A stretch of DNA of 64,000 nucleotides from Spirochaetota bacterium (GCA_963664815.2 CAXXHB010000003.1:320001-384000), one strand, 5' to 3'. Numbered from the stretch's first letter, positions 5,599 through 19,450 are shown. Numbers and translations are program-made. Notes: generated by a model from the letters alone, not told the origin.

Positions 5599-6180
5599 AT
5601 CACAGTGTTTAATTGTATAAAAATCTAAGCATAACAAAGTTGGTGTTTTCACTATTGTGATCAGTTCTGATAATCGGGTTATTCAAGGTATTATACACAG
5701 CTAATCTTGAGTAAAACAAAAGCGGTTGATTGTTTATGATATTCAAGAGGCTGCTGTATAATAATTTTCTGTCGGATGAATTTTGAATAACATTGATTGA
5801 AACAGAAATTATTCATATTACGAAATTGTTAAATAATCACATACCTGTATTCATTGTATGAACGGCACTACAGGCTTTATGCAGATAGAACTTTCATAAA
5901 TGTGCTATTTAGTTATTAAATTTTTCTGAGGGAATTAATATTTTTAATTTTAACATTCATGTAATATAACAACTGTTTTTCTGCTTGCCAATTATTGTAA
6001 AGATACATTTATTATTTTGTAATGACTGACTTGATCAGTTTAATATTAAATATTTGTTAATTAATTATTCTCCGGGATAATTGTTAAACAAAAATTTGAC
6101 ATAAGTAATAATAGAAATTTTTATGGCTTATTGATAAGAAAAATTTAGATCTAAATTATTTGAGTGAAAGGAGATTAGAT

Positions 6181-8349
6181 ATGAGAACTAATGAGTATGT
6201 TGCCTCTCAACTGCGAAAAGTGTCTGAAGAAAAAAAAGAGAGAAAGCCTGTTTCAACTTTTTTCGGCGAATATACTTTTAACAAAGGTGTAATGCAGGAG
6301 AAACTTCCAAGATCAATATTCATGAAGCTGATGTCATGCATTGAAGAAAACACAAAACTTGATATTGATACAGCGAATGCAGTAGCACATGCGATGAAAG
6401 AATGGGCGATGGATAACGGGGCAACCCACTTTGCTCACTGGTTTCAGCCAATGACCGGAGCAACTGCAGAAAAACATGATGCCTTTATTGAGTTTTCCGG
6501 GACACATGAAGTAATTGAAAGATTTTCCGGATCACAGCTTGTTCAGAGCGAACCTGATGCATCAAGCTTTCCGAGCGGCGGAATCCGTGCAACTTTTGAA
6601 GCACGCGGTTACACGGCATGGGACATGTCAAGTCCGGCATTTCTGAGGAAAAATGGCCTTGGGATAACGCTATGTATTCCTTCAGCCTATATCTCATACA
6701 CCGGGGAAGCTCTTGATAAAAAAACTCCGCTTTTAAGATCCGCAAGGGCAGTAAATACAAGTTCAATAAGGATGCTTCGTCTTTTGGGGAATGACCATTC
6801 TAAAAAAGTAGTATCAAATCTCGGTCCTGAACAGGAATATTTTCTGATAGACAGAAGTTTCTATATAAAAAGACAGGATCTTATACTTACCGGGAGAACT
6901 TTGCTTGGAGCTGCACCCGCAAAGGGACAGGAGCTTGAAGACCAGTACTTTGGGAGTATAAAAGAAAGAATACAGTCATTTATGCATGACTTTGATGAGG
7001 AATTATTCAAGCTCGGAATCCCTGCTAAAACACGTCACAATGAAGTAGCACCTGCTCAATTTGAAATTGCACCGATCTTTGAAGAGGCAAATCTTGCTGT
7101 AGACCATAACCAGCTGCTTATGGATACGATGAAAAAAGTGGCGCGAAGACACAACCTTGCTGCGCTTTTGCACGAAAAACCTTTTGCGGGGATTAATGGT
7201 TCAGGAAAACACGTCAACTGGTCTATAGGCACCGATGATGGTATAAACCTTCTTAATCCTGGTAAAACACCGACTGAAAACATACAGTTTCTTGTTTTCC
7301 TTATAGCTGTACTTAAAGCAGTTTTTAAACACAGTGATGTTTTAAGAGCAACTGTTGCCACAACAGGTAACGAGCACAGGCTGGGAGCTAATGAAGCGCC
7401 GCCGGCGATTATTTCTGTGTTTCTTGGCGAGCAGCTTGAAAAAATTCTCAACTCAATCGAAAAAGGTGAAATTCTTAAAGATACAGATGCGGCTCTTATA
7501 GATCTCGGGCTTGCCTCATTACCTGTTGTTAATAAGGATAATACTGACAGAAACAGAACTTCACCATTCGCTTTTACAGGAAATAAATTTGAATTCAGAG
7601 CAGTAGGTTCATCCCAGTCAATATCGCTTCCGGCTGCTGTTATCAATATGATCGTTGCGGAAAGTCTTGATGAACTTTCTGATAAAATTGAGAAATCAGG
7701 TAAAGGTGATCTGAAGAAGACTATAATGGATTTGATCAGGGAAGAGATTAAAGAGATTAAGCCGATAGTATTCGGCGGTGATAACTACTCAGCTGAATGG
7801 TACAAAGAAGCTGAAAGAAGGGGCCTGCCTAACCATAAAACGACTCCCGAATCTTTAAAATCATTTAATACAGACAAAGCAAAAAAACTCTTTGATAAAT
7901 ATAAGGTCCTCTCAAATGTGGAACTATATTCGAGATATCATATACATCTTGAAAACTATATTAAAAAAATAGAGATTGAATCAAGAGCTTTTTACAGCAT
8001 TGTTACATCTCAGGTTATTCCTGCTGCATATAAATTTCAGAATGAGATTGCCGGATCCATTAAAAACACAATGGGGCTGGTAGATGACAGTATACTGAAA
8101 CCGCAGAAAGATCTTCTTCTCAGGGTCAGCACACTAATTGGGAAGATACAGAATGGAATGAATGAACAGATCCAGTTGAGTGAAAATGCAAAGAAGATTG
8201 AAAATGAACAGGAAAAAGCTGAATTTTATTGTGAAAAAGTAAAAGTCACAATGGATGTAAACCGTCTGCTGGTTGATGAACTTGAAACAATTATGGATGA
8301 CGACATCTGGCCTATACCGAAATTCTGGGAGATGCTTTTTATCTGTTAG
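6181..8349 (+). CDS. Glutamine synthetase type III (GlnN-type)
   Basis: ATHFAHWFQP, EPDASSFPSGG, GPEQEYF, HNEVAPAQFE, LHEKPFAGINGSGKH, HRLGANEAPP, DRNRTSPFAFTGNKFEFR; AGGAG before ATG 6181. Confidence 0.96.
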   Translation: MRTNEYVASQLRKVSEEKKERKPVSTFFGEYTFNKGVMQEKLPRSIFMKLMSCIEENTKLDIDTANAVAHAMKEWAMDNGATHFAHWFQPMTGATAEKHDAFIEFSGTHEVIERFSGSQLVQSEPDASSFPSGGIRATFEARGYTAWDMSSPAFLRKNGLGITLCIPSAYISYTGEALDKKTPLLRSARAVNTSSIRMLRLLGNDHSKKVVSNLGPEQEYFLIDRSFYIKRQDLILTGRTLLGAAPAKGQELEDQYFGSIKERIQSFMHDFDEELFKLGIPAKTRHNEVAPAQFEIAPIFEEANLAVDHNQLLMDTMKKVARRHNLAALLHEKPFAGINGSGKHVNWSIGTDDGINLLNPGKTPTENIQFLVFLIAVLKAVFKHSDVLRATVATTGNEHRLGANEAPPAIISVFLGEQLEKILNSIEKGEILKDTDAALIDLGLASLPVVNKDNTDRNRTSPFAFTGNKFEFRAVGSSQSISLPAAVINMIVAESLDELSDKIEKSGKGDLKKTIMDLIREEIKEIKPIVFGGDNYSAEWYKEAERRGLPNHKTTPESLKSFNTDKAKKLFDKYKVLSNVELYSRYHIHLENYIKKIEIESRAFYSIVTSQVIPAAYKFQNEIAGSIKNTMGLVDDSILKPQKDLLLRVSTLIGKIQNGMNEQIQLSENAKKIENEQEKAEFYCEKVKVTMDVNRLLVDELETIMDDDIWPIPKFWEMLFIC

Positions 8350-8401
8350 TCTCTGGAATTTCCTTTAATTAGTTACTTTTAAATTACTCCCGGCTTTGTC
8401 G

Positions 8402-8432
8402 CGCCCCTCTCTTTTTTCAAAGAGAAGGGGCG
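8402..8432. terminator. GC-rich hairpin between convergent genes (terminator or REP-like element)
   Basis: CGCCCCTCTCTTT-TTTC-AAAGAGAAGGGGCG. Confidence 0.55.
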
Positions 8433-8448
8433 GGGATAAGCAGAAGGA

Positions 8449-9774
8449 CTAATAGCCGGGCAAAATAAATCTTTCATATATTTTTTTTACCCTGTCTGTC
8501 AACTGAACAGATACATAATCCTTTGAGTTAACTGCAGTTTTATATAGCCTGTATCCCTCGGCCTGACATCTTTTACACCCATCTACCGGTATTTCTATGC
8601 CGATACATGGGGGATTTATAGATGCAGTGGATTCTATCATCAGAACTCCGCGGCATTCATTGCATATCATGATATGTTCTTTCTGGCTTTCCTGAATGCC
8701 GTCTGTATCATAGTAAATGTTTTTATGCCTCACTGTATACTGCCCTACAGGCGCTCTTTGCAGATCTGGTTTAGGATTGAGATAGTTGTTAAGAACTGGT
8801 TCCTTAAGCCTGGAAATGTACTCCGTAACTTCATCCTCCTGCGGGTGATAGTTCAGGTCATAATCCGGTTCTTTGACGCATGAATAATCCATCCCAGCCA
8901 TTGCAAGGACAATCCCAAGGTTTACATATGGGAGAGCACCCTGTATTGAATATCCTCCTTCAAGTACGGCTATATGAGGATTGAGTTTTTCGTTAAGCAA
9001 TGCGTATCCGTGAGCAGTAAAATTCATGTTGGTAATAGGGTCTGTATAGTGATTATCCTGTCCAGCTGAATTTATGATTAATTCAGGTTTAAAATGTTCA
9101 AGAATAGGAAGAACCATATTGTCTATTGTATAAATGAAGCCCTCTTCGGAAGTGTTAGGGGGGAGGGGAATATTGATAGTTCTCCCTCTGGCATTCGGTC
9201 CTCCAAGTTCAACAAGGTGGCCGGAGCCGGGATAAAGGGTTCTCCCATCCTGATGTATTGATATAAACAGCACATCAGAGTCATGCCAGAAAATATCCTG
9301 AGTACCGTCGCCATGGTGACAGTCTGTATCAACTATTGCTATACGCCTTTTGCTGTAGTTTTCCCTGATATATTCGATCATTATTGCTTCGTTGTTGATG
9401 TTGCAGAAACCCCTGTTTCCGTGAACACATTTCATCGCATGATGACCGGGAGGACGCACAAGAGCGAATGCTTTTTCAACCTCGCCGTCCAGAACGGCAC
9501 GCGCCGCCCTGATTGCACCGCCGGCTGAAATCATGTGGGATTCCGTTATTACACTCTTTACATCCGGGAAACAGAAATGCGAGCGCATAACATCTGTATC
9601 TGACGCGATGTCCGGCTTAAGCTCTATAATTCCTTCAATATCGAAAATTCCCTCCTCCTTTAGCTGGTCCTGGGTATATAGAAGCCTCTCTTCTCTTTCC
9701 GGATGTGTTGGAGATATGGCCCAGTCATAAGCCGGGAAAAAAACAAGCCCTAATCTATTCTTTGCTTTCAGCAT
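8449..9774 (-). CDS. Histone deacetylase (HDAC/AcuC/AphA superfamily) Zn-dependent deacylase with C-terminal Cys4 extension
   Basis: HPE...RL, RPPGHH, GFC, DTDCHHGDGTQ, SIHQ, YPGSG, NIPLP, SAGQDNH, LEGGY. Confidence 0.92.
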   Translation of the reverse strand: MLKAKNRLGLVFFPAYDWAISPTHPEREERLLYTQDQLKEEGIFDIEGIIELKPDIASDTDVMRSHFCFPDVKSVITESHMISAGGAIRAARAVLDGEVEKAFALVRPPGHHAMKCVHGNRGFCNINNEAIMIEYIRENYSKRRIAIVDTDCHHGDGTQDIFWHDSDVLFISIHQDGRTLYPGSGHLVELGGPNARGRTINIPLPPNTSEEGFIYTIDNMVLPILEHFKPELIINSAGQDNHYTDPITNMNFTAHGYALLNEKLNPHIAVLEGGYSIQGALPYVNLGIVLAMAGMDYSCVKEPDYDLNYHPQEDEVTEYISRLKEPVLNNYLNPKPDLQRAPVGQYTVRHKNIYYDTDGIQESQKEHIMICNECRGVLMIESTASINPPCIGIEIPVDGCKRCQAEGYRLYKTAVNSKDYVSVQLTDRVKKIYERFILPGY

Positions 9775-9786
9775 ATTATTCCCTCT

Positions 9787-11445
9787 TTACAGTTTATACA
9801 GGTTCATAACAACTCCTGGTCTGACCTGACATTTGACCCGGATGTCATTTCCTGAAGAGTAGTAATCGTCTATCATCCGGAAACTCGATGATTCAACAAT
9901 ATCTATCTTAAGATCTCTTGAGTTATAACCCGAACTCTCAAGGAATTTTTTCGTATAGTTAACCGCATCATTCTCTGCTTCGTTGAGAGAATATCTTCTT
10001 GATACTTTTACTTCCACACCAAGATTTGGAATAACCATTTTTTCTTTACCTGTATCTGAAAAAAGTTCAGTTTCAAAAGTTGTACGTGCGAGCGCTGCCC
10101 CGATTGCATTGGCAACACTGTAGTTCGCGGGGACAACAATTTCTGTATCACTCTCCATTACTTTAGCAAGAGCAGCAGCCGGTCCTCCTATAATATATAT
10201 TTTTTTCGGAGCTATTTTTTCACCCTGGATCATCTCGTGAATTGTATAAACAGGTTTCTGGTTTATTTCCGACAGCTGTCGACTTATTTCATCTTTTATT
10301 TTTTTTACGCTGAATGCAATGGCTTTATCTGCAAGATCCGAAGGGCTTAACCCGTTCGTTTCTGCAAGTTTTTTTACTGCAGCGACAGATTTTGCTTTGT
10401 TCTCATGGTTTATTATACCTGCGAAGTTCATTGCGTCAACCAGTGTCGGGTGGGTTCCACCTTCTGATACGCTTGGACCTTTCCTTTCAGGGCCAGCTTT
10501 AACTACACCATTAACAACAGAGATGGCAGAGTCTCCCCCTATGCCTATTGATCTGTTTTGAAGTGAACGAACAAGTGTCGGTATACCTTCGAGTGAAATG
10601 CCATCCCTCTCCATAAGAGGAGCACCTGATGCGAAAACAGCGATATCAGTTGTCGTGCCACCAATATCAAGTATTACTGAATCTTCGGTTATTTTACTCA
10701 GGGCTATAATTCCCATAATGCTTGCGGCTGGACCCGAGAGGATCGATTCTACCGGAAGTGTTTTAGATACTTCTGCAGGCATTGTACCTCCATCTGCTTT
10801 GAGAATATTTACAGGTGCATCAATTCCCATACTGTCCAATGCTTTTGTGATAGAAGTAAGAAAGTTTGAATATATTCTCCATACGGCTGAATTATAATAT
10901 GCAGTTGCGGCTCTTCTGGGAAAGCTTAGCTGGCTTGACAGATTGTGACCTTCAGTAATAAAATCAGAATGACTTTTAAGTGAACCGGCAATTATTGATT
11001 CCTGGATACTGTTTCTGGTAGAAAATTTTGTTACTGCGGCATAAACTCTAATTCCGTTTTTAACACATTCATTTATTTTTTTTTCAAGAGAGGATGAGTC
11101 AAGTTTACGCACTTCACTTCCTCTGTGATTTATGGAACCATCTATAATATATGTATTGCTTCCTATCCTGAAATTCTCAGGGTCAATTCCGGGGCCGGAT
11201 GATATGAAGAGAGCTGTCTTTTCCAGTTTATTTTCTATAATTGCATTTGTTGAAAGGGTTGTGCTAAGGTTTATATTTTTTATCTGTTTTACATCTTTTC
11301 CTGCGGTAACTTCTTTCAGGGCAGTTGTTACAGTCTGGAGAAGGTTGTGAGTATCAGTTTTAGCTTTAAAAGTTGATTCAATGCCGTCATTACCTATCAG
11401 GACAGCATCAGTATGAGTTCCTCCTACATCGATCCCGAGCAGCAT
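9787..11445 (-). CDS. Hydantoinase A/oxoprolinase family ATPase (ASKHA fold)
   Basis: GIDVGGTHTD, STTLSTNAI, SILSGPAASIMG, DIGGTTTD, SIGIGGDS, ANAIGAA; 12 nt from the HDAC start; GGAG RBS. Confidence 0.9.
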   Translation of the reverse strand: MLLGIDVGGTHTDAVLIGNDGIESTFKAKTDTHNLLQTVTTALKEVTAGKDVKQIKNINLSTTLSTNAIIENKLEKTALFISSGPGIDPENFRIGSNTYIIDGSINHRGSEVRKLDSSSLEKKINECVKNGIRVYAAVTKFSTRNSIQESIIAGSLKSHSDFITEGHNLSSQLSFPRRAATAYYNSAVWRIYSNFLTSITKALDSMGIDAPVNILKADGGTMPAEVSKTLPVESILSGPAASIMGIIALSKITEDSVILDIGGTTTDIAVFASGAPLMERDGISLEGIPTLVRSLQNRSIGIGGDSAISVVNGVVKAGPERKGPSVSEGGTHPTLVDAMNFAGIINHENKAKSVAAVKKLAETNGLSPSDLADKAIAFSVKKIKDEISRQLSEINQKPVYTIHEMIQGEKIAPKKIYIIGGPAAALAKVMESDTEIVVPANYSVANAIGAALARTTFETELFSDTGKEKMVIPNLGVEVKVSRRYSLNEAENDAVNYTKKFLESSGYNSRDLKIDIVESSSFRMIDDYYSSGNDIRVKCQVRPGVVMNLYKL

Positions 11446-11695
11446 AGTTTATCTCCAGTAATAATTTTTTTAATGGATATAGTAATATTAGTGCATTTTC
11501 TTTACAGTTCAGATATAATTTTAAAAAACCACAGGGGATATTAATTTTTTACAGCGCCTGTGATATAGTGGAAAAAATTATCCATCTGTTTTTTAGTAAT
11601 AACAATATAAGTAAAATAGTATATGTCAAGGAAAAGAGAATAAATAAGATATCGTTTTAGTTGAAGAATTTTACCATTTTTGATTTAATAATTTT

Positions 11696-11799: not shown

Positions 11800-12843
11800 T
11801 TATGCGGTTTTCTTCTTCCTCTGGTTTTTTTTTTCATTTTTTGAGGAAATCTTTTTATTTGTATTCCTTAATTCTGCAGGAGTTTTTGATGTATGAACAA
11901 ATGGTTTGAATTTTTTCCCATGCTTATTTGTTTTTATTTGAGTGATATCTGGTATAAATTTTGTATTATCAGAAAGAATTTTTTTTATTCTTCCGGGATA
12001 ATCAATGATTGAGATTTGTTCCGCATTACCGGTATTTTTCTGTTCCGTTACTATTGGGTTATTCACCTGTAAGTTATTTGACGGAGTTTGACTGTTCTCA
12101 GCAACGGCGGCTCCACTCTGCTTGATAATGTGAGCAATTATACCTTTGTAACCTGTTTTTGTCATAAGGTAGCGGTGAATCTGGAAGTTGTTGGCAGAAG
12201 GTAGCGATTCCATCCTGGGTTCTATGGTCATTGCATATTTATATCCTGCATTTTTAAGTTCGTTTATGGCAATGGGGCTGTTCACTCCGAAAGGATAAAG
12301 CATTGTTTCAATTTTACGGTTAAGCTTTTCCTCGAGTATTTTTTTTGATAAATAAATCTCCTTTTTAAAACTGGCCGGTTCCTGGTTGTAGTATTTTTCT
12401 GATAAAAACATATGGTGGTATCCATGAGACGCAATGTAGCATCCATCTGCAGAAAGCTGTTTTACTTCATCCCAGGTCATTGCATAATGCATCCTGCTTA
12501 TAATCGCAGGATATATTCCAAGAAGAGGTTTTATCTCCATTGGTTTCATTATTGAATAATAGGCCTGGTAGACGCTTTTGTTTCCATCATCGATACTAAT
12601 AAGAATATTTTTATTGCCTGTAATTTTGTCATTGATGACATCTTCAAAAGTAACAAAGGTAAAACCACTGTTCTTAAGTTTATGGAGCTGTTCTCTGAAT
12701 ATTTCATTTGTGAAAGAATAGGGATCCTTTTTTTCCAGAAAAGCATGATAGCATAGAATATATACTCCCTTTGAATAGGAAGGGGCAGCAAAGATAAAAA
12801 AAATCAGGACTGAAGCCAGTGTTATGAAAGTTGTTTTTTTCAA
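11800..12843 (-). CDS. Exported polysaccharide deacetylase (CE4/NodB, IcaB-like) with basic low-complexity tail
   Basis: Signal peptide; ILCYH, SIDDG, MTWDEV, ASHGYHH, YPFG motifs. Confidence 0.88.
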   Translation of the reverse strand: MKKTTFITLASVLIFFIFAAPSYSKGVYILCYHAFLEKKDPYSFTNEIFREQLHKLKNSGFTFVTFEDVINDKITGNKNILISIDDGNKSVYQAYYSIMKPMEIKPLLGIYPAIISRMHYAMTWDEVKQLSADGCYIASHGYHHMFLSEKYYNQEPASFKKEIYLSKKILEEKLNRKIETMLYPFGVNSPIAINELKNAGYKYAMTIEPRMESLPSANNFQIHRYLMTKTGYKGIIAHIIKQSGAAVAENSQTPSNNLQVNNPIVTEQKNTGNAEQISIIDYPGRIKKILSDNTKFIPDITQIKTNKHGKKFKPFVHTSKTPAELRNTNKKISSKNEKKNQRKKKTA

Positions 12844-12965
12844 GGGAGATCTCTCTTTATGTATTATATACTTTTATAATCGAAAAAAAATATTATTTAC
12901 TCAAGTAAAACTGTTTAATATGATTAAAATCAGGTATTTTTCCAGAAAATATTCGTTACTTTTAT

Positions 12966-13541
12966 TTAAAATCCTTCCGGCAGGCCGGTGGTTTTGTTAT
13001 TTTCCTTTTCTTTTAATTCTTTCTGAAGCCTGGCATCTACATTAGTTTTAATTTTGCTTTTTCTTTCATCTAGCTCAGCGGCATATGCGGCATCTATTTT
13101 GATAACATTTTTTTCAAGGATACCCAGATATAACTCAGTTTCAGGGAGTATATGCTTCTGTATATAATTTGAGTTTGCCCAATTTTTCTTTTTTATAAAG
13201 TAGTTCATTTTCCATACCTGAATTTCTCTGACCTGAATTATTTTTTCATAAAATAACTCGATTTCTTTAACATCGTGTTTAAGAAGTATTTTTTCCATGG
13301 CTGGAGACTTTGCAGTTATCTCTTTGTCGGTAAATTTTCCATTTATAAAAACATAATCAATTTCAATATCAGGATCAAATCCGTATTTGAAATTAATGGA
13401 TGAGGTGGTTTCATCAAGCATTACTTTTTCAGTTTCTGAGAAAAGTTTACTCTCTTTTTTTGAAATCATTATCCAGAATGAAGAGTTGCATTCAAGCAGC
13501 ATTAGTGGTAAAATCATTAATGTCAATAGTTTAATTCGCAT
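12966..13541 (-). CDS. Hypothetical protein, probable lipoprotein
   Basis: Hydrophobic N-terminus ending LLEC; GGAG RBS; 12 nt downstream of neuB. Confidence 0.65.
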   Translation of the reverse strand: MRIKLLTLMILPLMLLECNSSFWIMISKKESKLFSETEKVMLDETTSSINFKYGFDPDIEIDYVFINGKFTDKEITAKSPAMEKILLKHDVKEIELFYEKIIQVREIQVWKMNYFIKKKNWANSNYIQKHILPETELYLGILEKNVIKIDAAYAAELDERKSKIKTNVDARLQKELKEKENNKTTGLPEGF

Positions 13542-13553
13542 TATATACTCCGT

Positions 13554-14585
13554 TTATTCAAGGTATTCCCATTTAATCAATGAACCTTCGTTTATATCAA
13601 CTCTTGCTTTTTTACCGGTTATATCATCTATCCTGTTGGGAGATATGCCGATTCCAGGTCTCAGTGCAATAATCGAATTCTCATTAATGATGTCTCCGGT
13701 GGATATTTTTTTTAAAGCAAAAAGGCTTTTTCTTGCAGCAAGAGCTGTACCTGTCTCTCTTCCCGAATATTTAATTTTTCCGTCACCAAGCATTGCGACT
13801 GCGTCTTTGACTTTTTCTGTCATTTCCCTGAAACTTTCCGCTGTAAGCGAAACGTCTTTATCGGGGCAATCATGATTTTTATCAATCATGAAATGTTTTT
13901 CGATGACAGAAGCGCCTAAGGCTGCAGCAATTACTGACGATTCATATCCGGAGGTATGATCTGATAACCCTACAGGCACATTGAACCTGTTTTTCAGTGA
14001 AACTATACGCGAGAGGTTTGTCTCCTCCTTTTTTGCCGGGTAAATTGAAACACAGTGGAGCAATAATGTCTCACTATTTCCGGCTTCCTTCAGGTTTCTG
14101 AGAGATATTTCTATATCGCTTTCGGATGTCATTCCTGTTGAAAGGAGAACCGGCTTTTTTGTAGCGCCGACTTTTCTTACAAGCGGGGTGTTTGTCACTT
14201 CTGACGAGGCAATTTTATAAAGTTTTACTCCCAGTTTTTCAAGGAGTTCAACCGATTCAATATCAAAGGGGGCGGAAAAAAATTCAGTATGACATTTTTC
14301 GGAGACATTTTTCAGATTTTCCCACTGGCCGGGAGTAAAAGTAAATTTTCTGAAAAAATCAATAATACTGTAATCGGGATTCTTTTCGCTGCCATTTTTC
14401 AGCAGTGAAGATGTATATGGTGAATTCATTTTTTCCGGGATAAATGTCTGAAACTTTACTGCATCAGCTCCGGATTCAGCAGCCCTGACAATCATTTCCT
14501 CCGCAAGTAACGGATCGCCATTATGGTTAAGCCCGATTTCTGCGATGAATATTATTTTCTTATTATTAAAGATTTCGTTAAACAT
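13554..14585 (-). CDS. neuB: N-acetylneuraminate/nonulosonate synthase (NeuB family with C-terminal SAF domain)
   Basis: IAEIGLNHNG, GADAVKFQ, KIASSE, LSTGM, LLHCVSIYP, GLSDHT, IEKHF, RPGIGISP. Confidence 0.9.
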   Translation of the reverse strand: MFNEIFNNKKIIFIAEIGLNHNGDPLLAEEMIVRAAESGADAVKFQTFIPEKMNSPYTSSLLKNGSEKNPDYSIIDFFRKFTFTPGQWENLKNVSEKCHTEFFSAPFDIESVELLEKLGVKLYKIASSEVTNTPLVRKVGATKKPVLLSTGMTSESDIEISLRNLKEAGNSETLLLHCVSIYPAKKEETNLSRIVSLKNRFNVPVGLSDHTSGYESSVIAAALGASVIEKHFMIDKNHDCPDKDVSLTAESFREMTEKVKDAVAMLGDGKIKYSGRETGTALAARKSLFALKKISTGDIINENSIIALRPGIGISPNRIDDITGKKARVDINEGSLIKWEYLE

Positions 14586-18130: not shown

Positions 18131-19450
18131 GTGACAATTAAGAAAACCGATATAAAAAGCCCTGAAGGTAAACTTGGTATAGTGATGCCTGGTCTCGGCG
18201 CGATAAGTTCAACAGTTATAGCAGGTGTTTATTTAATAAGAAGAGGAATGCATAAACCTATAGGGTCTTTAACACAAATGGGAAAACTCAGGGTTGGTAA
18301 GGGAATTGATGCACAGGATATGAATATAAAAGATTTTATTCCGCTGGCGGCACTGGAAGATATTGAATTCGGAGGTTGGGATATCTTTGAAGATAATATA
18401 TATGAATCTGCAAAAAATGCAGCCGTTCTTTCAAGAGAGGATATAGATCCTATAAAAGATGAACTTTCAAAAATCAAGCCGTGGAAAGCTGTTTTTAAAA
18501 ATGAATATTGTAAAAATCTGAATGGAAAATGGGTAAAGGATGCTCCAACTTTGTGGGATCTTGCACAGATGGTAAAGGATGATATTTTAAATTTTCAGAA
18601 GGAAAAGAATTGCTCCAGAATAGTCATGATATGGTGTGCCAGTACGGAGATTTACCAGGAGATGATCCCCGGAGTGCATGATACTGTTGCCAATTTTGAA
18701 AAAGCTCTGAAGGAAAACCATCCCAAAATTGCCCCCAGTATGATCTACTGTTACGCTGCAATGAGTCTTGGAATACCTTATGCCAATGGTGCACCTAATC
18801 TCTGTAATGATATTCCAGCTTTCTGGGAGCTTGCCCAAAAGAACCATGTTCCCATGTGTGGTAAAGATTTTAAAACCGGTCAGACTTTCATGAAAACGCT
18901 TCTTGCTCCAGGTCTTAAAGCGAGGATGCTCGGCATGAAAGGCTGGTATTCTACTAATATTTTAGGGAACAGGGATGGGGAAGTGCTTGATGATCCGGAT
19001 TCATTCAAATCAAAAGAAGTAAGTAAACTTTCGGTACTTGACCAAATCCTTGAACCAGAAGTATATCCGATACTTTACAAAGATTTTTATCATAAAGTAA
19101 CTATAAACTACTATCCCCCAAGAGGAGATAATAAAGAAGGCTGGGATAATATAGATATATTCGGATGGCTCGGATATCCTATGCAGATAAAGGTAAACTT
19201 CCTTTGCCGGGATTCAATCCTTGCTGCACCCTTTGTCCTTGATCTTGCAATATTCCTTGATCTTGCCAAAAGGGCTTCTTTGTCAGGAAACCAGGAGTGG
19301 CTTTCCTTCTACTGGAAGAGTCCCATGCATGCACCAAATGAAGATCCCGAGCATGATATATTTATTCAATTGATGAGACTTAAGAATACTTTAAGGTGGC
19401 TAATGGACGAGCCTCCGGTTACGTATCTTGGATCTGAAACATATAATTAA
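18131..19450 (+). CDS. ino1: myo-inositol-1-phosphate synthase
   Basis: GLGAIS, FGGWD, ASTE, NGAPN, GKDFKTGQT, NILGNRDG, SKEVSK, GDNKEGWD, RDSILAAP; GTG start after AAGGAG. Confidence 0.93.
   Translation: MTIKKTDIKSPEGKLGIVMPGLGAISSTVIAGVYLIRRGMHKPIGSLTQMGKLRVGKGIDAQDMNIKDFIPLAALEDIEFGGWDIFEDNIYESAKNAAVLSREDIDPIKDELSKIKPWKAVFKNEYCKNLNGKWVKDAPTLWDLAQMVKDDILNFQKEKNCSRIVMIWCASTEIYQEMIPGVHDTVANFEKALKENHPKIAPSMIYCYAAMSLGIPYANGAPNLCNDIPAFWELAQKNHVPMCGKDFKTGQTFMKTLLAPGLKARMLGMKGWYSTNILGNRDGEVLDDPDSFKSKEVSKLSVLDQILEPEVYPILYKDFYHKVTINYYPPRGDNKEGWDNIDIFGWLGYPMQIKVNFLCRDSILAAPFVLDLAIFLDLAKRASLSGNQEWLSFYWKSPMHAPNEDPEHDIFIQLMRLKNTLRWLMDEPPVTYLGSETYN

Follow-up and report, generated by a model that had tools for sequence, protein, structure and literature searches.

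Introduction

The closest described relatives of the gene pair treated here are the enzymes of the HyuA/HyuB class, i.e., caprolactamase CapAB (6yra), the 5-oxoprolinases OplAB/OPLAH, N-methylhydantoinase (9h03 and 7hk5), acetone carboxylase AcxABC (5svc and 5m45) and Apc (5l9w). The pair lies in a 64,000-nucleotide stretch of DNA from a Spirochaetota bacterium (GCA_963664815.2, CAXXHB010000003.1:320001-384000), analysed at its full length and called the window below. It consists of a hydA-like gene, encoding a HyuA-type ATPase of the ASKHA fold, and a gene for a zinc deacylase of the histone deacetylase (HDAC) fold. As in the HyuA/HyuB class, the first gene encodes a full-length HyuA-type ATPase with both phosphate-binding loops (P1 and P2), the ATPase gene precedes that of its partner, the partner is a metal-dependent, hydrolase-type protein, and the two are fused in two recorded proteins. 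The pair departs from the class in one defining feature, the partner being of the HDAC/arginase fold and not HyuB (PF02538). Its ATPase is also about 140 residues shorter than CapA and AcxB, and ends in a different C-terminal domain, the 95 residues of which were not matched by any Pfam family.

For caprolactamase, a mechanism has been proposed (PMC8453981). CapA would phosphorylate the lactam (or bicarbonate) with ATP, and the activated lactim would then cross a 40-angstrom tunnel to the zinc site of CapB, formed by Asp41, His99, Asp102 and His124, and be hydrolysed there. According to the same source (PMC8453981), the enzyme requires bicarbonate and its ATPase activity depends on it. The zinc ligands of the HDAC-fold protein in the window (Asp, His and Asp) are chemically similar to those of CapB (Asp-His-Asp-His).

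By its fold and catalytic residues, the second protein of the pair is a classical member of the HDAC family. Fold and complete catalytic set are shared with the bacterial class-IIb-like deacylases Kdac1 of Acinetobacter baumannii (8szt and 8szu), HDAH of Bordetella/Alcaligenes FB188 (1zz0) and PA3774 (5g0x), and with the second catalytic domain (CD2) of eukaryotic HDAC6. Unlike these proteins, it has a family-specific stretch of 77 residues at its start, an extra C-terminal domain of about 130 residues with four cysteines (Cys4), and invariant polar residues beside the catalytic motifs: Arg121 (in RGFC), Arg178 (in DGRT), and Gln239, Asn241 and His242 (in AGQDNH). It also differs from them in being obligately paired with an ATPase gene; the HDAC-family enzymes known to us are stand-alone, energy-independent hydrolases.

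Two further kinds of system resemble the pair in part. In the acuABC operon of Bacillus subtilis, an HDAC-family gene also stands in a small operon with a linked partner, AcuA being a GNAT writer and AcuC an HDAC-type eraser, both acting on AcsA. Here, in contrast, the partner is an ATPase and not a GNAT protein, no acetyltransferase domain is present among 86 flanking open reading frames (ORFs), and an AMP-forming acyl-CoA synthetase is not recurrent, being found at a single locus (L058). The ASKHA reactivases (GlmL/MutL, EutA, DdrA, HgdC and DCCP-R, 7yyl) likewise combine an ASKHA ATPase with a partner metallo- or cofactor enzyme, but the fold of the hydA product is HyuA-type, with a template modelling (TM) score of 0.73, against 0.26 for 7yyl_E, and an Fe-S motif is lacking.

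A literature search for the pairing of such an ATPase with an HDAC turned up no description, in agreement with the first-pass annotation of the window, the author of which knew of no characterised system of this kind. In the 2024 survey of bacterial deacylases by Graf et al. (PMC11532494), the terms hydantoinase, oxoprolinase, Desulfovibrio and Spirochaet do not occur, and the supplements might list the family; PMC13081902 mentions hydantoinase solely when naming members of the amidohydrolase superfamily. Below, we describe the conservation of the pair, its predicted structures and its surroundings. We propose, at a rough probability of 45%, that the two proteins form a two-subunit, ATP-dependent enzyme that cleaves an amide or lactam, with the HDAC-fold zinc subunit taking the place of HyuB.

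Conservation of the gene pair

A profile search with the ATPase, made on contigs from one genome per species, gave 546 relatives, and 80 loci were kept. Of these, 66 are informative, containing a complete hydA gene and at least 1400 nucleotides downstream, and contig ends interrupt the remaining 14. A full-length HDAC orthologue follows hydA on the same strand in 63 of the 66 informative loci, with a median spacing of 23 nucleotides. The three exceptions are L050, where only a C-terminal HDAC fragment is found, L069, where the alignment covers just residues 1-392, and L047, where a glycoside hydrolase family 3 (GH3) gene replaces the HDAC gene at the locus and an HDAC orthologue is present elsewhere in the genome. 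The pair occurs in Spirochaetota, many Desulfovibrionaceae, Desulfomicrobium, Desulfohalobiaceae, Desulfobulbaceae, Nitrospirota, Thermodesulfobacteriota and Bacillota (Peptoniphilaceae). When a fused relative was used as the query, a divergent branch of 80 metagenome loci was found, its proteins having 30-37% (hydA) and 52-57% (HDAC) sequence identity to those of the window. This branch keeps the pair in 77 of the 80 loci, the remaining three being cut at the contig start. The two genes are a conserved module, retained as a unit in hundreds of anaerobes. In one Spirochaetota genome, a gene for a 333-residue WD40 beta-propeller protein lies between the ATPase and deacylase genes (L018:9617-10618).

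Co-occurrence was assessed in 301 Spirochaetota genomes. Scores were bimodal, and orthologues were defined by at least 415 bits for hydA (next match 234) and at least 656 bits for HDAC (next match 202). A hydA orthologue is present in 43 genomes, an HDAC orthologue in 44 and both in 43, and no genome has a hydA orthologue alone. In the genome that has HDAC without a full hydA (G253), the first 20 hydA codons are found at a contig edge. In four genomes (G010, G014, G025 and G029) the two genes are on different contigs, while in G505 no HDAC gene is found within about 8 kb downstream of hydA and the orthologue is located elsewhere in the genome. The two genes are thus retained together even where they are not adjacent and, because they are kept on separate contigs or far apart, co-retention must reflect more than operon hitch-hiking. 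Among 201 sampled Desulfovibrionales genomes, 153 have a match to hydA at E <= 1e-60 and 149 at E <= 1e-100; the other four matches, with E-values of 1e-71 to 1e-75, look like classical HyuA.

Pairwise distances for the two proteins are correlated (r = 0.93 over 133 pairs), and their FastTree trees, with about 129 bipartitions, share 96 of them, both measures being uncontrolled for shared species history. In two fused proteins, P0122 (1202 residues) and P0123 (1152 residues), the Hydant_A_N, Hydantoinase_A and Hist_deacetyl domains follow each other in operon order, with the cysteine-rich tail kept. These fusions are only suggestive of a link, because they are protein records from a single source and none of 80 related metagenome loci is fused.

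The HyuA-type ATPase

Pfam assigns the hydA product to Hydant_A_N (PF05378, E = 2e-25) and Hydantoinase_A (PF01968, E = 9.3e-41). Both phosphate loops are intact, P1 (DVGGTHTD) at residues 6-13 and P2 (DIGGTTTD) at residues 260-267. The AlphaFold model has a predicted local distance difference test (pLDDT) score of 77.8, and the nearest solved folds found with Foldseek are the acetone carboxylase beta subunit (5svc_B, TM score 0.73), Apc (5l9w), N-methylhydantoinase (9h03) and the caprolactamase subunit CapA (6yra_A). HyuA-type subunits are matched over the full length, with TM scores of 0.63-0.73, and profile matches were obtained to 6yra, 7hk5, 5l9w and 5svb.

The NCBIfam equivalogs all score far under their cut-offs (CapA 80.5 vs 1000, ApcA 69.6 vs 1250). 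The MfnF-type model TIGR03123 (methanofuran coupling enzyme; H4MPT-linked C1 pathway) gives 21.3 bits, against a cut-off of 244.1, for a local match limited to residues 211-277, and the MutL/GlmL models give weak local matches near the P2 loop, below threshold (22.4 bits vs 27). An Fe-S cysteine motif is not conserved in the family, Cys539 being the sole invariant cysteine. Outside the phosphate loops, the motifs GGDS and KADGG are retained in 146 and 143, respectively, of 147 orthologues. Three invariant segments (residues 64-71, 278-295 and 398-408) are modelled at low confidence.

Among other HyuA-like ATPases, a set of about 970-1230 residues (P0359-P0375, also in G007, G060, G106 and others) has DUF1638 (PF07796) or TPR repeats as the fused part in place of HyuB. 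In view of these fusions, HyuA-type ATPase modules appear to pair with a variety of domains other than HyuB.

The HDAC-fold protein

The second protein matches Hist_deacetyl (PF00850) with an E-value of 1.9e-67 (228 bits) and consists of a catalytic domain (approximately residues 1-300) and a family-specific C-terminal domain (approximately residues 314-441). Its model is of higher confidence (pLDDT 86.2, predicted TM score 0.89) and most closely resembles Kdac1 (8szu), HDAH (1zz0), PA3774 and HDAC6 CD2, with Foldseek E-values of 1e-24 to 1e-26. The catalytic motifs RPPGHH (residues 107-112), Asp151-Cys-His153, Asp240 and EGGY (residues 272-275) align onto the catalytic residues of HDAC6 CD2. 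The His111-His112 dyad, the zinc ligands Asp151, His153 and Asp240, and Tyr275 are invariant in all 16 aligned orthologues.

The tunnel residues Phe123, Tyr181 and Ile247 resemble those of acyl-lysine deacylases; Ile247 is in the position that we take to be occupied by the polyamine gatekeeper Glu in HDAC10. Similarity to solved HDACs begins at residue 78, the preceding 77 residues being near-invariant within the family. The C-terminal domain contains four invariant cysteines (Cys371, Cys374, Cys400 and Cys403) and is confidently modelled, but belongs to no Pfam family. A relationship to a known domain, such as the acetone carboxylase gamma subunit, was considered and rejected, the Pfam matches being trivial and sub-threshold, to zinc ribbons only. 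An exhaustive phmmer search with the domain gave 117 matches, and among the 24 of these checked against Pfam it was seen attached to this HDAC family only: the short matches belong to no Pfam family, and the longer ones (219-498 residues) mostly bear the tail of an HDAC domain.

Since the orthologous ORFs were selected by PPGHH plus EGGY and by P1, these motifs were not counted as evidence of conservation. Of the other HDAC motifs, D.D.HHGDG and RGFC are retained in all 145 orthologues, AGQDN in 144 and Cys4 in 138; 143-145 of the 145 have the polar residues of RGFC, DGRT and AGQDN, which adjoin the catalytic motifs. With the HDAC and hydA motifs kept in nearly all orthologues, both active sites appear, from their sequences, to be maintained throughout the family. 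HDAC sequence identity across phyla is 54-89%, and the evolutionary rate of the protein is 0.71 times that of hydA (133 pairs). Residues 11-40 and 178-183 are invariant and modelled at low confidence. The segments of this kind in the two models would look like partner- or ligand-dependent loops, although this is not proof of such a role.

HyuB and 5-oxoprolinase genes

The host genome (5.2 Mb in three contigs, 96.2% complete) contains one Hydantoinase_A and one Hist_deacetyl match, which are those of the pair. The first-pass annotation had pointed out that a B-type subunit is absent from the window, and this extends to the host genome as a whole, where Hydantoinase_B (PF02538) has no match either; a HyuB gene elsewhere in the genome as the true partner of the ATPase, which would have undone the proposed pairing, was thus not found. 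Four of five other pair-holding genomes also have no PF02538 match, and in the fifth (G301) the match is about 1 Mb away from the pair. With the host included, no HyuB match was obtained in five of the six pair-holding genomes examined.

The pair was also considered as a missing 5-oxoprolinase, i.e., an analogue of PxpABC or OplAB, and this was rejected, as a distribution complementary to that of the known 5-oxoprolinases is not seen. PxpA has no match in the host genome. PxpA (PF03746) is present in 20 of the 201 Desulfovibrionales, 19 of which also hold a hydA orthologue, and in 9 of the 301 Spirochaetota genomes, including just one of the 43 pair holders. A 5-oxoprolinase role is unsupported because nearly all PxpA-containing Desulfovibrionales hold the pair and because PxpA is rare in Spirochaetota generally, with or without it.

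Proposed mode of action

A two-subunit enzyme in which the HDAC-fold protein replaces the B subunit is favoured because of the strict co-occurrence and adjacency of the genes, the A-then-partner order, the two fusions, the missing HyuB match in five of six genomes and the HyuA-type fold of the ATPase. The gene linkage, the co-occurrence, the folds, the intact active sites and the lack of a HyuB match are what the analysis shows, and from them we infer a physical complex, coupling to ATP and the chemistry that follows. Substitution of the B subunit had been one of two readings offered in the first-pass annotation, where it formed part of a nitrogen-scavenging route feeding glutamine synthetase; the substitution is retained here, and the route is not supported.

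Transposing the scheme proposed for CapA and OplA to the pair, the ASKHA subunit would bind ATP together with a small-molecule amide or lactam, and possibly bicarbonate as well, and would activate the carbonyl oxygen by phosphoryl transfer. The activated intermediate would then move to the HDAC subunit. There, a water molecule on the Asp-His-Asp zinc site, assisted by the His-His dyad and Tyr275, would finish cleavage of the C-N bond. On the HDAC subunit, contact with the ATPase is probably made by the Cys4 C-terminal domain together with the invariant segment at the N-terminus.

Several points weigh against this proposal. We know of no member of the HDAC family that needs ATP, and ordinary amide hydrolysis requires no energy input. 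The acyl-lysine-type tunnel of the deacylase seems better suited to linear N-acyl amines than to the small ring of a lactam, and the most obvious candidate substrate, 5-oxoproline, is without phyletic support. The correlation between the distances of the two proteins is not corrected for common species phylogeny, and the fused proteins, from one source, are known as protein records, with no fusion at the DNA level among the 80 related metagenome loci.

Since its neighbours change from lineage to lineage and it is near-core in the sulfate-reducing Desulfovibrionales, the pair is more likely to serve housekeeping or metabolite salvage than a niche catabolic pathway. We suggest, still more tentatively, that an HDAC-fold zinc enzyme working only within an ATP-driven two-subunit machine may represent an unrecognised class of ATP-dependent amidohydrolases, with a common metabolite or a damage product as its substrate.

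Alternative explanations

The HDAC protein may instead be a protein-lysine deacylase, with the ASKHA protein serving not as a co-catalyst but as an activase, chaperone or gate driven by ATP, which might load or exchange the metal or open the active site only at high ATP levels. ASKHA ATPases are known to act as reactivases or activases, examples being GlmL, EutA, DdrA and HgdC, and the sub-threshold matches of hydA to the MutL/GlmL models are in keeping with such a function. The closest solved relatives of the HDAC protein, Kdac1, HDAH and HDAC6 CD2, are lysine deacylases; a conserved macromolecular substrate would fit its high conservation and slower evolution, and the low-confidence invariant segments are what partner-dependent loops would give. 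We nevertheless consider this explanation unlikely. The hydA model matches the small-molecule-activating HyuA-type subunits over its full length and far better than any activase, the family has no conserved Fe-S cysteine motif, and neither a candidate protein substrate nor an acyltransferase gene recurs nearby.

Equally improbable, in our estimate, is a small-molecule pathway in which the two proteins act one after the other as physically separate enzymes; an N-acetylated metabolite could, for instance, be phosphorylated and N-deacetylated, as by NagK and NagA. Tight operon linkage is as compatible with this as with a single enzyme, and co-retention of the genes when apart would be predicted too. 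In the clade of the window, the pair is downstream of sugar-modifying genes, for a polysaccharide deacetylase and a NeuB-like protein, and the GH3 gene that follows hydA in L047 is NagZ-like, but the sugar-gene neighbours are clade-specific. HyuA-type proteins are, to our knowledge, not simple hydroxyl kinases, and co-retention taken together with the fusions, in which an HDAC domain stands where fused oxoprolinases have HyuB, fits a single enzyme better.

A carboxylase-type enzyme, in which the HyuA-type subunit would make carboxyphosphate from bicarbonate and ATP and the HDAC zinc site would apply it to an amine or an enolisable substrate, appears highly improbable. Structurally, hydA comes closest to carboxylase subunits (AcxB, 5svc_B, and Apc, 5l9w), but carboxylases and lactamases differ little in Foldseek score. 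A carbamate and an N-acetyl group are isosteric; no sequence feature specific to bicarbonate binding was found, and no HDAC-fold enzyme known to us forms C-N or C-C bonds. The bicarbonate requirement and bicarbonate-dependent ATPase of caprolactamase, as given in PMC8453981, would agree with a carboxylase.

Least credible of all is the other reading of the first-pass annotation, a coenzyme A-independent switch for nitrogen control in which the ATPase would activate a carboxylate and ligate it to an amine (a protein lysine, possibly on glutamine synthetase type III (GSIII), or a metabolite) and the HDAC would remove it: it draws on the convergent GSIII gene here and at ten further spirochaete loci, on isolated nitrogen- or glutamate-related neighbours and on the existence of bifunctional writer/eraser proteins (GlnE and AceK), with which a fusion would be compatible, but counting against it are the restriction of the GSIII neighbour to one lineage, described below, the failure of the MfnF-type model to reach its cut-off and our knowing of no HyuA-type enzyme that ligates.

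Glutamine synthetase and other neighbours

Of the 66 informative loci, 11 include GSIII in the retrieved sequence; all 11 are from Spirochaetota, and in all of them the gene is convergent with the pair. In three of the five other pair-holding genomes, which are from other phyla, GSIII_N has no match, and in the remaining two it is far from the pair. Among 86 flanking ORFs (58 + 28) scanned with Pfam, there are no amt, PII or acetyltransferase (GNAT) genes, and no other nitrogen gene recurs beside the pair in the neighbourhood clustering and flanking scans. The association of the two genes with each other, which the first-pass annotation had expected, is therefore borne out (63/66 and 77/80 loci), while that with GSIII, amt or PII genes is not seen, and nitrogen control through GSIII finds no support. 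The adjoining position of GSIII is best read as lineage-specific synteny: GSIII is a neighbour, outside the module, and its place next to the pair seems to have arisen by chance in one lineage.

All-against-all clustering of the ORFs from the 80 loci, together with the Pfam analysis of the flanking ORFs, revealed no third conserved gene beyond single clades. Clade-specific neighbours are GSIII, the set of NeuB, the 191-residue ORF (orf191) and polysaccharide deacetylase, PdxA, sigma-54 activators and histidine kinases. In one Desulfovibrionaceae clade (L019, L047, L067, L068 and L070), the ATPase gene is immediately preceded by pdxA in the same orientation, the gap between the two being -15 to 107 nucleotides. 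At single loci, the pair has beside it a GGACT/AIG2 gamma-glutamyl cyclotransferase gene (L049:7519-7950), a Macro domain gene (L051:476-1129) and a gene for a DUF362 Fe-S protein (L050:10680-11840); AsnA is found near L059 and L064.

Organisation of the window

The features of the window are collected in Table 1. The tight pair with its intact ATPase loops and deacylase motifs, converging on GSIII, is present in the sequence just as the first-pass annotation described it. The nearest named homologues of the pair are from uncultured Spirochaetota and Leptospirales. Neither protein has a match in PADLOC, which was searched for anti-phage defence systems.

Table 1. Positions of the gene pair and associated sequence features, numbered from the first nucleotide of the window.
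Feature	Position	Strand	Description and basis
hydA-like gene	9787-11445	-	552 residues (P0001); first gene of the pair, HyuA-type ASKHA ATPase; ORF and Pfam
HDAC-like gene	8449-9774	-	441 residues (P0002); zinc deacylase fold; ORF and Pfam Hist_deacetyl
GSIII gene	6160-8349	+	729 residues; glutamine synthetase type III; Pfam GSIII_N, Gln-synt_C and Gln-synt_C-ter
hydA/HDAC intergenic spacer	9775-9786	-	12 nucleotides, AGAGGGAATAAT; holds a GAGGG ribosome-binding site for the HDAC gene; read directly
Predicted promoter of the pair	11602-11629	-	sigma-70-like (TTGACA, 16 nucleotides, TATTGT); consensus scan, 10/12 positions matched
Hairpin between the GSIII and HDAC stop codons	8402-8432	.	GC-rich, 13 bp; sequence and fold

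The spacer upstream of hydA is 354 nucleotides long and AT-rich, and includes the predicted promoter. The scan gave 9 promoter-like sites, no more than the 10.1 expected from shuffled sequence. The promoter box CTTTTCCTTGACA is common to L003 and L005, and appears shifted in L004, L006 and L007; the remainder of the leader is not conserved among related loci and has no Rfam match. Between the promoter and the start codon of the ATPase gene, a hairpin followed by a T-run is found (11525-11565, - strand), which is unconserved in related leaders. A riboswitch or attenuator in the leader was considered and rejected, because of the lack of an Rfam match and because the hairpin is not kept in five related leaders.

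GSIII and the pair are separated by a 99-nucleotide spacer that contains the GC-rich hairpin. Its minimum free energy is -31.5 kcal/mol on one strand and -30.8 kcal/mol on the other (z-scores of -2.0 and -3.0); it is without a clean T-run and was not among the calls of the terminator scan. It is probably a two-way terminator. Judging from the predicted promoter, the short gap between the two genes and the convergent GSIII gene with the intervening hairpin, the pair looks like a transcription unit of its own.

Upstream of the pair and on the same strand (11800-14585, - strand), the window contains a polysaccharide deacetylase-like gene, the 191-residue ORF, which has no Pfam match, and a gene for a NeuB-like, sialic-acid-type synthase. 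Synteny of these three genes extends to the closest spirochaete relatives (L003-L011 and L013). Further along, the window has a myo-inositol-1-phosphate synthase gene (NAD_binding_5 and Inos-1-P_synth; 18131-19450, + strand), with a glycerol kinase gene a few kb away.

Implications

For this window, the tempting link to the regulation of glutamine synthetase is removed. If the proposed two-subunit enzyme is real, an obligate partnership with a HyuA-type ATPase would be a new catalytic mode for the heavily studied HDAC fold and, conversely, the HDAC fold would be a new type of partner for the HyuA/HyuB enzyme class. Roughly three in four of the Desulfovibrionales species sampled have the hydA gene (149/201), and the pair also occurs in other anaerobes. 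As the pair is widespread in anaerobes and no paper describing it was found, its substrate is likely to represent a gap in the metabolic maps of these environmentally important organisms.

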